A stretch of DNA of 64,000 nucleotides, taken from the NCBI GenBank assembly GCA_963752255.1, contig CAVVXT010000019.1:96001-160000 (forward strand), given 5' to 3'. This DNA is from Nitrososphaeria archaeon (lineage in GTDB: Archaea > Thermoproteota > Nitrososphaeria > JACIWG01). Below are positions 59,121-64,000 of the stretch, piece after piece. Below the pieces are notes generated by a model, which was not told the DNA's origin, searched no databases, and worked only from the letters and a program-made list of their open reading frames with translations. The translations under genes and the position numbers were made by a program. Every line of letters begins with the position of its first letter. Within the stretch, counting starts at the first letter, position 1.

Positions 59121-59672
59121 TTAACTCCACCATTTCTTCTTTAAAGGCATAGCGATTATTTCTCTAACCTCCAGCTTCTTCATTGTGTCTGTGCTAAAAA
59201 TGTCTTCAGTTTTTGTAGCTCTTGCTACAATCGCTGTGTCAGCTCCTCTTCCACTATCACCGACACCAATAACATCTTCGTACAAGTTTACAACAGAAGC
59301 GTCAGAAGCCATCAAAATTACCTCGACTGCGACTTTAAATCCTTGACCAAGAGCGTAGTAAGAATTTCTGATGTCATCCATACCTTTTTTGTGAAGTACT
59401 GGATATATCTGATCTATGGCTGTTCCCCCTAGTTTGGCGATTTTCTCCATAGCGGAAGACTTCATCTTTTCATGCGAAACTGCAACGATTTTAGCTTTGT
59501 TCTTAAATTTCTCAACGAATTTTAATGCTGTATACCCAGATGTACTTGCAACAACGATGAACCTAATATCTGCCTTTTGAATCCTTTTTAGAACTGTTTA
59601 TATGATTGTATCGGTGTCATCTGGTCCCGGTTCTTGAAAATAGACAGAATTATATTCTATTTTTGAAGGCAT
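59121..59672 (-). pseudogene. Pyruvate kinase C-terminal-like domain protein (MTH1675/COG1751) with an in-frame TAA at 59598-59600
   Basis: YFQEPGPDDT..*..VVASTSGYTA, GQGFKVAVE, SGRGADTA, REIIAMP in one frame. Confidence 0.8.
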
Positions 59673-62589: not shown

Positions 62590-63279
62590 ATGTTAAAGCT
62601 GAAAGGGCTCGGCGTTTCAACTGGTGTAACAACAGGGCCTGTACTAGTCTTTAACGTACTTAAAGAAAATAAGCTGCTTGAAATTCAAGAGGAAAATCTA
62701 AGCGAACTTAAACGTTTTGAAAAAACACTCCAGAGAACCAGAGAGGACATCGAAGCTGCTTACAACAAGCTTGTGAAGGAGGGGATACGTGAAGGTGAAA
62801 TATTAAGTGCACACCTTCAGATACTTGATGATGAAGAGTTCTCAGGTGCGATAAAGACACTGATATCCAACAAGAAAATGAAAGTTGAGGATGCGGTTGA
62901 AGAAACTGTAAAGAAGCTATCAGCCACACTTAGAGAAGCAAAGTCGGAATATATTAGATCAAGGATAATAGATATAAACGATCTTGGAGAACAACTGATT
63001 AGAAATATGACATCTAAGAAGGGGGCAGCTATTTCCTCAGTAAAGCCGTCAATAATTGTAGCAAAAGAACTTGGCGCTACAGATGTAGCGACAATGGATA
63101 AGGGGAAAATACTTGGTATAGTTACTGAAGAGGGATCTCCGATTTCCCATGTTTCGATATTAGCTAGAGCACTTAAAATCCCAGCTGTTGTTAAATGCCA
63201 AAACATAGTAGATCAAGTTGAAAGCAGGGACACAATTTTTATAAACGGCTCTACAGGAGAAGTCATAATCAATCCTTAG
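62590..63279 (+). CDS. PTS Enzyme I N-terminal half only (HPr-binding helical domain plus phospho-His domain)
   Basis: GLGVSTG, ILSAHLQILDD, YIRSRIIDINDL, TEEGSPISHVSILARALKIPAVV, NGSTGEVIINP*; no PEP-binding barrel. Confidence 0.88.
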   Translation: MLKLKGLGVSTGVTTGPVLVFNVLKENKLLEIQEENLSELKRFEKTLQRTREDIEAAYNKLVKEGIREGEILSAHLQILDDEEFSGAIKTLISNKKMKVEDAVEETVKKLSATLREAKSEYIRSRIIDINDLGEQLIRNMTSKKGAAISSVKPSIIVAKELGATDVATMDKGKILGIVTEEGSPISHVSILARALKIPAVVKCQNIVDQVESRDTIFINGSTGEVIINP

Positions 63280-63360
63280 GAAATAACCATGTGGATCCAT
63301 CACCAGTAAACAATAAGGTAATTGAAAAGATTTTTTATACGTTCAATAACAAATATCCTG

Positions 63361-63768
63361 ATGTCAGAAAATTTGGGCGCAGCATCGTTCAAGCAGCTTG
63401 AGAAGGAATTCGATGAACTAGACAAGGAAATGAAAGCTGCGATAAGCGATTGGCAGGGTTCATATGTTAACGACACTTGGGTTCCTAATATCCATAGAGA
63501 TTCTGAAAAAGACTTCATCATTCTAGAGAGACTGTTTAAATTATATGATAGACTAGCAGTTTTGTTTGACAAAAACAGAATTGTCCAAGAAAACCATAAA
63601 GAGTTGGAAAGGATTGTGCATGAAAATATGCTAAAATTGGAGACAGCTGTCGAACAGATGGAAAATGGAGACTTCACATTTGTTGACGCCCCCGATAAGG
63701 AATCTTTCCATACATCATGGATGAGTTTGCATCAAAGCTTGATGGCGTTCTTAAAAAAACGTCTCTAG
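63361..63768 (+). CDS. Rv1126c-like protein (family associated with PPDK-type phospho-His proteins)
   Basis: F..LD.EMK..ISDWQ, PN.H.D, ESFHTSWMSLHQSL; TATA-like TTTTTATA ~25 nt upstream of ATG 63361. Confidence 0.6.
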   Translation: MSENLGAASFKQLEKEFDELDKEMKAAISDWQGSYVNDTWVPNIHRDSEKDFIILERLFKLYDRLAVLFDKNRIVQENHKELERIVHENMLKLETAVEQMENGDFTFVDAPDKESFHTSWMSLHQSLMAFLKKRL

Positions 63769-63773
63769 ATGAA

Positions 63774-64000
63774 TTAGACTTTACGCAGGTTTTTTGAATC
63801 TTCTGCAGCATTTTTGGCATCATTAAGACTACCGCCCGAACTTATCTCAACAGCTGCGGCGAATGATCCTTCAACTAGCGGAGCATCCGCGATGGTGACC
63901 TTCTCTCCAATTTCTTTAGGGAGCATCTTTATAGCTGCTTTGGAACTTATTATTGCACTTCCTAAATCGCAGACTATCAACACACCCCCTCTGTCCATCA
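63774..64000 (-). CDS. dhaM: DhaM (EIIA-Man-fold phosphotransferase subunit of PTS-dependent dihydroxyacetone kinase), C-terminal part
   Basis: GVLIVCDLGSA, IADAPLVEGSFAAAV; 5' end lies beyond the window. Confidence 0.85.
   Translation of the reverse strand, partial: MDRGGVLIVCDLGSAIISSKAAIKMLPKEIGEKVTIADAPLVEGSFAAAVEISSGGSLNDAKNAAEDSKNLRKV

Follow-up and report, generated by a model that had tools for sequence, protein, structure and literature searches.

Phosphoenolpyruvate (PEP) is the defining phosphoryl donor of the phosphotransferase system (PTS), and PTS-dependent dihydroxyacetone (DHA) kinases occur in haloarchaea. In Escherichia coli, DhaM is a protein of three domains, which resemble EIIA-Man, HPr and the N-terminal part of Enzyme I (EI), respectively. 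Here, we describe a gene cluster of a Nitrososphaeria archaeon whose first genes lie at the end of a 64,000-nucleotide stretch of DNA (hereafter, the window) and which encodes an EI without its C-terminal PEP-binding barrel (EIN), a small protein named U135, HPr, DhaM, DhaL, DhaK, and a truncated pyruvate phosphate dikinase (tPPDK). As in E. coli DhaKLM, the same relay domains would feed DhaL·ADP and DhaK, and the EI-like piece has the same end. The archaeal cluster differs from E. coli DhaKLM in that the three domains are encoded by three genes and not in one chain, and in that no general PEP-dependent EI was found in the genome, while an ATP-grasp kinase and U135 are present in the cluster.

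Another archaeal genome of the same phylum, G361, provides a close comparison, since its dhaM-dhaL-dhaK and ptsH genes are orthologous and in the same order, and the two DhaK proteins are 70% identical. However, G361 encodes a 562-residue full-length EI with its barrel in the same arrangement, together with a full-length PPDK, and has neither a U protein nor a truncated PPDK. Between the two clusters, the barrel and a kinase module appear to have been naturally exchanged.

PPDK, PEP synthase, and rifampin phosphotransferase/PigC-type enzymes share a mechanism in which the ATP-grasp domain phosphorylates a histidine of the swivel domain, and this histidine delivers the phosphate to a second site. 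In these enzymes the second site belongs to the same chain, whereas in the cluster described here it would be provided by separate proteins (U135 and EIN), with a PTS carrier as the presumed final acceptor. A related case is VadK (Rv1127c) of Mycobacterium tuberculosis, the small partner of which, Rv1126c, has to our knowledge no known function. According to the accessible part of PMC13400623 (EMBO Reports, 2026), VadK lacks the pyruvate/PEP domain of PPDK and autophosphorylates at His422 in an ATP/Mg-dependent manner; Rv1126c is its operonic partner, raises the solubility of VadK, and is released from VadK only by washing with 2 M NaCl. An earlier note, made from the letters of the window without database searches, had named Rv1126c as a neighbor of a barrel-less PPDK, and this link is confirmed by the same text. 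The role proposed for VadK in that part of the paper is the regulation of the methylcitrate cycle, and no natural phosphoryl acceptor of the family is named there. The archaeal pair resembles VadK/Rv1126c in having a PPDK cut to the ATP-grasp and swivel-histidine domains and a small partner placed in the same family by synteny, but it is embedded in PTS/dha clusters, whereas no PTS partner was found near the pair in any of the 80 surveyed loci described below, and U135 is without the N-terminal winged-helix part.

The source assembly (GCA_963752255.1, named G000 below) comprises 2.1 Mb in 19 contigs and is 94.7% complete. The window corresponds to positions 96001-160000 of contig CAVVXT010000019.1 (G000:C19:96001-160000), a window coordinate being the C19 coordinate minus 96000. 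All relay parts, tPPDK and U135 are found within one cluster, which includes about 6 kb past the window end (Table 1). The EIN and U135 genes are on one strand and separated by 81 bases, and dhaM is convergent with U135. The window holds only the 3' part of dhaM (63774-64000, minus strand), the remainder lying past its end, in agreement with the convergent dhaM read there in the earlier note. Beyond base 64000, where that note proposed to look for dhaK, dhaL, ptsH and a ppdK, all four were found. The tPPDK, dhaK, dhaL and dhaM genes are co-directional on the minus strand, with tPPDK first, and ptsH is divergent from tPPDK. A histone-fold gene near the cluster is consistent with an archaeal host.

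Table 1. Positions of the cluster genes and of the other features discussed in the text (C numbers, contigs; L numbers, locus coordinates).
Feature	Length	Position	Strand	Domains, models or remarks
EIN-only Enzyme I	229 aa	window 62590-63279	+	PF05524 and PF00391; ends VIINP-stop
U135	135 aa	window 63361-63768	+	placed in the Rv1126c-like family; without a match in Pfam or NCBIfam
dhaM	132 aa	window 63774 to C19:160172 (ORF L002 1775-2173)	-	PF03610; TIGR02364
dhaL (Dak2)		C19:160176-160919	-	PF02734, E 5.6e-53
dhaK (Dak1)		C19:160864-161871	-	PF02733, E 1.2e-109
tPPDK	~525 aa	C19:161970-163547, ORF open to 163622	-	PF01326 and PF00391 only
ptsH (HPr)	88 aa	C19:163630-163896	+	PF00381, E 9.2e-28
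ORF directly after ptsH	213 aa	G000:C19:164072-164713 (L002 6073-6714)		past the window end; no Pfam or NCBIfam family
P-type cation ATPase		G000:C19:165186-167874 (L002 7187-9875)		past the window end; two overlapping ORFs
Window ORF		window 59121-59465	-	no Pfam match
ppsA-like gene		G000:C12:160237-161677 (L003)		three ORFs: ATP-grasp; swivel and barrel start; barrel
G003 protein near dha cluster	203 aa	L010 8191-8802		standalone, pyruvate-kinase C-domain-like (PK_C)
G327 PTS-linked gene set		L048 233-5625 (G327:C36)
G363 PEP_hydrolase-like genes		G363:C34 (L046 2001-3730 and 9579-10415)		three genes, PF09370
Degenerate second U copy, G363		L046 6876-7448		without N-x-H segment
Degenerate second U copy, contig L131		L131 2043-2627		without N-x-H segment

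The DhaM protein matched EIIA-Man (PF03610) with an E value of 1.4e-22 and exceeded the TIGR02364 cutoff (119.8 bits against 98.25), and the DhaK, DhaL and DhaM subunits encoded together constitute the gene set of a PTS-dependent DHA kinase. DhaM, HPr and EIN match, respectively, the first, middle and last domains of the E. coli-type DhaM model, and none of the catalytic motifs is disrupted in HPr, DhaM or tPPDK.

The EIN protein contains the HPr-binding helical subdomain (PEP-utilisers_N, PF05524, residues 5-125, E 1e-22) and, at residues 152-223, the swivel domain (PEP-utilizers, PF00391, E 1e-21), and PEP-utilizers_C (PF02896) was absent from this open reading frame (ORF) in the Pfam scan. 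Its match to the PTS_I model (TIGR01417) covers positions 1-230 of 565, with 139.5 bits, below the cutoff of 341.7. The match to the E. coli-type DhaM model (NF008478) spans positions 256-472 of 473, and EIN thus ends at the end of the EI-like domain of DhaM. The earlier note had described an EI that stops at the EIN boundary, keeps the phosphohistidine motif SHVSILAR, and is followed by no EI barrel in the downstream frames. The domain and model limits bear out the first point, the motif histidine (His187) is invariant in 15 EIN-only sequences, six of which come from related archaeal loci, and no PF02896 match was detected in the frames downstream of EIN.

The EIN-only relatives that form one clade with the window's protein (47-86% identity) are 229-267 residues long, and both the EIN-only length and the catalytic histidine are retained over 33-86% identity across two clades. 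Metagenome contigs of about 95% identity, obtained from four runs of three studies, cover the EIN-U135 stretch, one of them spanning all of it; no RNA data were listed among the sequencing runs, and close relatives occur in soil and peat. Two indels were observed in these contigs, a T inserted after position 63330 in the intergenic region and one base missing at 63753 in the U135 tail, and only substitutions were found inside the EIN ORF. The recent truncation of a full-length ptsI, which the earlier note had considered as a counter-explanation, is contradicted by the lengths of the relatives and by the related contigs, and the truncation is, by these comparisons, evidently old and maintained rather than a recent break. 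The EIN tree separates the EIN-only proteins into two clades with good support, one linked to dha genes and the other to a GAT-type PTS, which form a polytomy together with three full-length EIs from archaea, and a single origin of the EIN-only form was not rejected by the approximately unbiased (AU) test (p 0.099). The barrel was probably lost once or twice.

A whole-genome search for PEP-utilizers_C (PF02896), also proposed in the earlier note, returned a single locus, a ppsA-like gene on contig C12 that is split into three ORFs. This split reflects either two frameshifts in a true pseudogene or assembly errors; if the break is real, the organism would be without any intact PEP-utilizers_C domain. 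No standalone C-terminal EI barrel (EIC) was detected in the genome by this search, nor was any GAT-type EII found there. EIN, HPr, and U135 each gave a single match in the genome and tPPDK one full-length match, its second and weak match being the swivel domain of ppsA. Since the only barrel in the genome belongs to the broken ppsA, the EIN-HPr-DhaM chain is left without a visible PEP entry, and tPPDK is the only autophosphorylating candidate for charging the relay. The earlier note had suggested that EIN is charged either by an ATP-grasp PPDK-like protein or by a separate EIC: the former gene is present, and truncated as guessed, but the latter is absent from the genome.

The tPPDK protein aligns to residues 4-511 of an 873-residue solved PPDK (E 2e-142) and consists of the ATP-grasp domain (PPDK_N, PF01326) and the swivel-histidine domain (PF00391), without the PEP/pyruvate barrel. 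Its score against the short-PPDK/VadK model NF004531 (PRK05878), 490.4 bits, exceeds the curated cutoff (456), and its swivel histidine, His452 of a TSH motif, is invariant in relatives. By analogy with VadK, tPPDK would autophosphorylate on this histidine with ATP. PPDK catalyzes the reversible reaction ATP + Pi + pyruvate ⇌ AMP + PPi + PEP, and because of this reversibility the transfer potential of the PPDK phosphohistidine should be near that of PEP, as a PTS chain needs. Three transfers of this type are established in known systems: the PPDK swivel domain carries phosphate to a second site, EIN phosphorylates HPr, and DhaM phosphorylates ADP on DhaL.

We consider it probable that the cluster encodes a PTS-type DHA kinase in which ATP, and not PEP, feeds the phosphoryl chain. 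The domain content, the conserved histidines, the gene linkage, the co-occurrence of the parts and the lack of an EI-type barrel were directly observed. From these data we infer the following series of phosphoryl transfer steps. The ATP-grasp domain of tPPDK would phosphorylate its own swivel histidine by an ATP to AMP dikinase chemistry, as demonstrated for its mycobacterial relative VadK, and the phosphoryl group would then pass, aided by U135, to the swivel histidine of EIN. From EIN it would be transferred to His15 of HPr, to DhaM, to ADP on DhaL, and finally to dihydroxyacetone held by DhaK. U135 would act as a second docking site of the swivel domains, in place of the PEP-binding barrel of PPDK or EI, and may be either a phosphate carrier, by way of one of its three invariant histidines, or a catalyst or scaffold only.

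The distribution of these parts was analyzed in a census of 401 genomes sampled from the phylum, plus the relative G003. EI or EIN was found in 17 of the 401 genomes, so that the rarity of PTS parts in archaea, as stated in the earlier note, roughly holds here; three of these proteins are EIN-size (G000, G327, and G387) and 14 are 562-619 residues long. A first search for U with a whole-protein profile (A2) matched 210 of the 401 genomes, nearly all by weak matches to the winged-helix part only, and this count was replaced by that of a domain-only profile (A8), run on 19 genomes (17 with EI/EIN or a true U match, plus G003 and G001). The U domain was then detected in all four EIN-only genomes (G000, G003, G327, and G387) but in no genome of the full-length EI group (n = 14), and the truncated PPDK in three of the four and again in none of the 14, which provides the co-occurrence table that the earlier note had in mind. 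Among the 14 genomes, two have a full-length PPDK and the others only ppsA-type matches, and no extra EIN-only gene was reported in them. Because the genomes are related and few, this complementary distribution should be read as a pattern and not as a statistic. Profile A8 also matched G363, and the same-genus genome G001 has none of the system parts.

The arrangement of the parts varies among these genomes. In G003, which belongs to the same family as G000, a first locus contains EIN (~243 residues), HPr, dhaM, dhaL and dhaK, and a second one contains a 210-residue U directly upstream of a 528-residue tPPDK. In G327, from another family of the phylum, a 10-kb contig encodes BtpA, EIIA, an M42 peptidase, EIIC-GAT, EIIB, ribulose-phosphate epimerase, HPr, EIN, U, and tPPDK. 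G387 has U, EIN, HPr, EIIC-GAT, EIIB, and EIIA, and the PTS-linked form is repeated in metagenome contigs L134, L135, and L186. The EIN-U-tPPDK set would serve two different acceptor systems, dha and GAT-PTS. The gene set of G327, which we take to resemble the E. coli sgc operon, may be a candidate for a bacterial import into an archaeal lineage. In G363, U and tPPDK are accompanied by a second, degenerate U and by a 608-residue protein with only a C-terminal swivel. The U and tPPDK genes are adjacent in G003, G327, and G363. Three PEP_hydrolase-like genes (PF09370) flank this G363 cluster (Table 1); their barrels were considered as a stand-in for EIC and rejected, being present only in G363 and in none of G000, G003, G327, and G387.

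U135 has no Pfam or NCBIfam family. A profile built from U135 and three close relatives was searched against 1.84 billion representative proteins and matched 180 of them at E <= 1e-3, with E values as low as 2e-15 to members of 200 residues. Most proteins of the family are about 200 residues long, with the U135-like match in the C-terminal 120 residues. Its assignment to the Rv1126c-like family is based on the statement of operonic partnership in the accessible part of PMC13400623 and on synteny in Mycobacterium, not on a sequence alignment. In an alignment of 74 U sequences (A2), F17, W31, N43, H45, H117, and H124 are invariant and all present in U135, and the near-invariant columns are Q32, D47, D51, A96, G103, S115, and W120, together with two columns at which U135 deviates, an E (S122 in U135) and an R (the column of R134 in U135). 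The DWQ, PNxH, and SFHTSWxxLH motifs pointed out in the earlier note thus coincide with invariant or near-invariant columns.

U135 and its three closest relatives consist only of the C-terminal helical domain, without the N-terminal winged-helix-like part of about 75 residues that is present in the U proteins of G003, G327, G363, and G387, as in most family members. This N-terminal part gave weak MarR/MntR winged-helix matches (E 5e-4 to 1e-2) in comparisons of the profile with PDB sequences. A longer U135, starting at an upstream TTG at 63322, is disfavored because of the one-base insertion after 63330 in related contigs. The AlphaFold (AF2) model of U135 is a four-helix bundle with a short hairpin (pLDDT 96.5). 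A prediction of the complex of tPPDK, U135, and EIN, with EIN as the partner, gave a score of 0.00, which is informative in neither direction.

A survey of U loci, with one genome per species, yielded at least 587 loci, of which the best 80 were analyzed; these were mostly from Nocardia, Mycobacterium, and other Actinomycetota. A tPPDK gene was present in the locus in 72 of these 80 cases, usually directly beside U. Fusions were also observed when 20 longer or selected members of the U family were scanned with Pfam: six are complete fusions (PPDK_N, swivel and U), seven are N-terminally cut with a swivel preceding U, one (P0112) joins a rifampin-phosphotransferase-like part without ATP-grasp to a swivel and U, two have U after unrelated domains, and four have no Pfam domain. 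Fused tPPDK-U ORFs were also found in L051 and L124. P0118, an actinobacterial-looking protein of 1049 residues, carries an N-terminal part with its own swivel, a truncated PPDK and U in one chain.

Swivel domains were searched with a hidden Markov model over 160 survey loci (80 from genomes and 80 from metagenomes). Two or more swivel ORFs were detected in 34 of the 80 genome loci and in 10 of the 80 metagenome loci, many of these contigs being short, and in at least one case (L102) the two swivels are two pieces of a single gene. The extra swivel proteins carry the swivel at their C-terminus and match PRK08296 or the C-terminal two thirds of the rifampin-phosphotransferase, PigC/RedH, and PRK06241 models; since only these two thirds are matched, the proteins are without an ATP-grasp domain. 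The degenerate U copies listed in Table 1 adjoin a swivel-only protein of about 608 residues in two independent contigs (L046 and L131). Because of the two-swivel loci and the P0112 fusion, these observations suggest that the tPPDK-U pair may serve separate swivel-histidine proteins in general, EIN being the archaeal PTS instance. A broader proposal, which we put forward only tentatively, is that tPPDK and U form a free-standing, ATP-driven generator of phosphohistidine that charges the swivel-histidine domains of other proteins in trans. If so, the archaeal acceptor would be the barrel-less EI, and a whole PTS, whether a DHA kinase or a GAT-type permease, would run on ATP; the bacterial acceptors would be rifampin-phosphotransferase/PigC-like proteins without their own ATP-grasp; the His/Asn cluster of U, with its near-invariant Asp, would be the transfer station that replaces the PEP-binding barrel; and the missing acceptor class of VadK-type kinases would be named.

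Several points weigh against an ATP-charged relay in the archaeal cluster. We know of no described precedent for phosphoryl transfer between two swivel-histidine domains or via a four-helix protein. The route would cost two phosphoanhydride bonds per dihydroxyacetone, whereas an ATP-dependent DhaKL could use one. HPr, DhaK, DhaL, DhaM, and the barrel were found in none of the best 80 U genome loci. No tPPDK was found in G387 (88% complete) in addition to its EIN, HPr, U, and PTS permease genes, and no EIN was found in G363 (89% complete), which has U and tPPDK. The absence of a barrel in G003 is weak evidence because this genome is only 68% complete. The three invariant histidines of U135, with its invariant Asn and near-invariant Asp, resemble a metal-binding or catalytic site more than one lone acceptor histidine. 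Furthermore, the search for a specific structural relative of U135 was unsuccessful: Foldseek against the PDB gave nothing at E <= 1e-3, a wide VIA-align search returned generic helical bundles only (best Z 12.2), with the HPt chain 8pbw_B (Z 9.2) inside this helical-bundle background, and the ESM Atlas matches were unnamed actinobacterial clusters only, with scores of at most 0.81. Finally, the role published for VadK is a regulatory one (PMC13400623).

This published role leads to a different explanation, in which tPPDK and U135 would be a regulatory kinase pair sensing ATP or the energy state and tuning dha/PTS genes or proteins, with EIN charged by something unrecognised. It would fit the description of VadK as a regulator of the methylcitrate cycle, the winged-helix-like part of most U proteins, which could bind DNA, and the lack of PTS genes in the 80 actinobacterial-type loci. 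However, the U135 protein of the window is without the winged-helix domain, and tPPDK heads the dhaKLM strand. A purely regulatory pair would also leave EIN, HPr, and DhaM without a phosphate source in a genome without an EI-type barrel, and fails to explain why U (four of four genomes) and tPPDK (three of four) occur only where the barrel is missing, as against none of 14 elsewhere. We regard a regulatory role of the pair as unlikely.

Still less probable, in our view, is that EIN, HPr, and DhaM are a split E. coli-type DhaM that is charged, like the E. coli protein, by a general PEP-dependent EI/HPr, or else by a PEP synthase, with the gene concerned lying at another site and possibly within the 5% of the genome missing from the assembly. 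The match of the three proteins to the last, middle, and first domains of the DhaM model is what such a split would produce, a genome that is 94.7% complete in 19 contigs leaves room for a further gene, and a full-length EI does exist in 14 of the 401 genomes of the phylum. Nevertheless, neither a second EIN, nor a second HPr, nor an EI-type barrel was found in the genome, and ppsA is broken into three ORFs. An EI-type barrel was likewise not found in G003 and G327, and the barrels of G387 and G363 were present only inside long frames of ppsA/PPDK size (817 and 577 residues). In addition, the 14 genomes with a full-length EI were not reported to carry the extra EIN-only gene. That the relay is a decaying remnant left after the loss of the EI barrel, with DhaKL using ATP directly or idle, seems very improbable, since the EIN-only length and catalytic histidine are kept across two clades, the closely related contigs show only substitutions within EIN, and HPr, DhaM, and tPPDK retain their catalytic motifs, even though ppsA and a P-type ATPase are broken in the assembly and the system is patchy among relatives, being absent from the same-genus G001.

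Some further features near the cluster were noted. In tblastn comparisons, neither the related archaeal clusters (L010, L015, L046-L048) nor any of the 160 survey loci showed a counterpart of the 213-residue ORF directly after ptsH, which was not counted as part of the system. The split of the P-type cation ATPase falls inside the E1-E2_ATPase domain (model positions 94 and 90) and is either a frameshift or a sequencing error. The window ORF at 59121-59465, judged by eye, is like the C-terminal half of the 203-residue G003 protein listed in Table 1.

The literature searches retrieved the VadK paper and its preprint, but no paper in which truncated PPDK/VadK, Rv1126c or proteins of their families are connected with the PTS or with archaea. 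The accessible part of PMC2405797 likewise contains no link of truncated PPDK/VadK or Rv1126c to PTS parts or archaea, and the word 'archaea' is absent from the main text of PMC13400623.

With the ATP-charged relay taken as the probable reading as a whole, what is new here would be the energy-coupling module, which differs from that of other relays of the PTS type. If this is true, the replacement of the EI barrel by an ATP-using dikinase module would change the definition of the PTS, and the phosphorylation of sugars or dihydroxyacetone would be uncoupled from the PEP/pyruvate ratio. The cluster would also represent a compact ATP-to-phosphohistidine system that could be reconstituted from seven small archaeal proteins, and would provide the kinase family described only recently (VadK, 2026) with a concrete biochemical role that can be tested. 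Within one phylum, the orthologous clusters with full-length and truncated EI offer a ready natural comparison.

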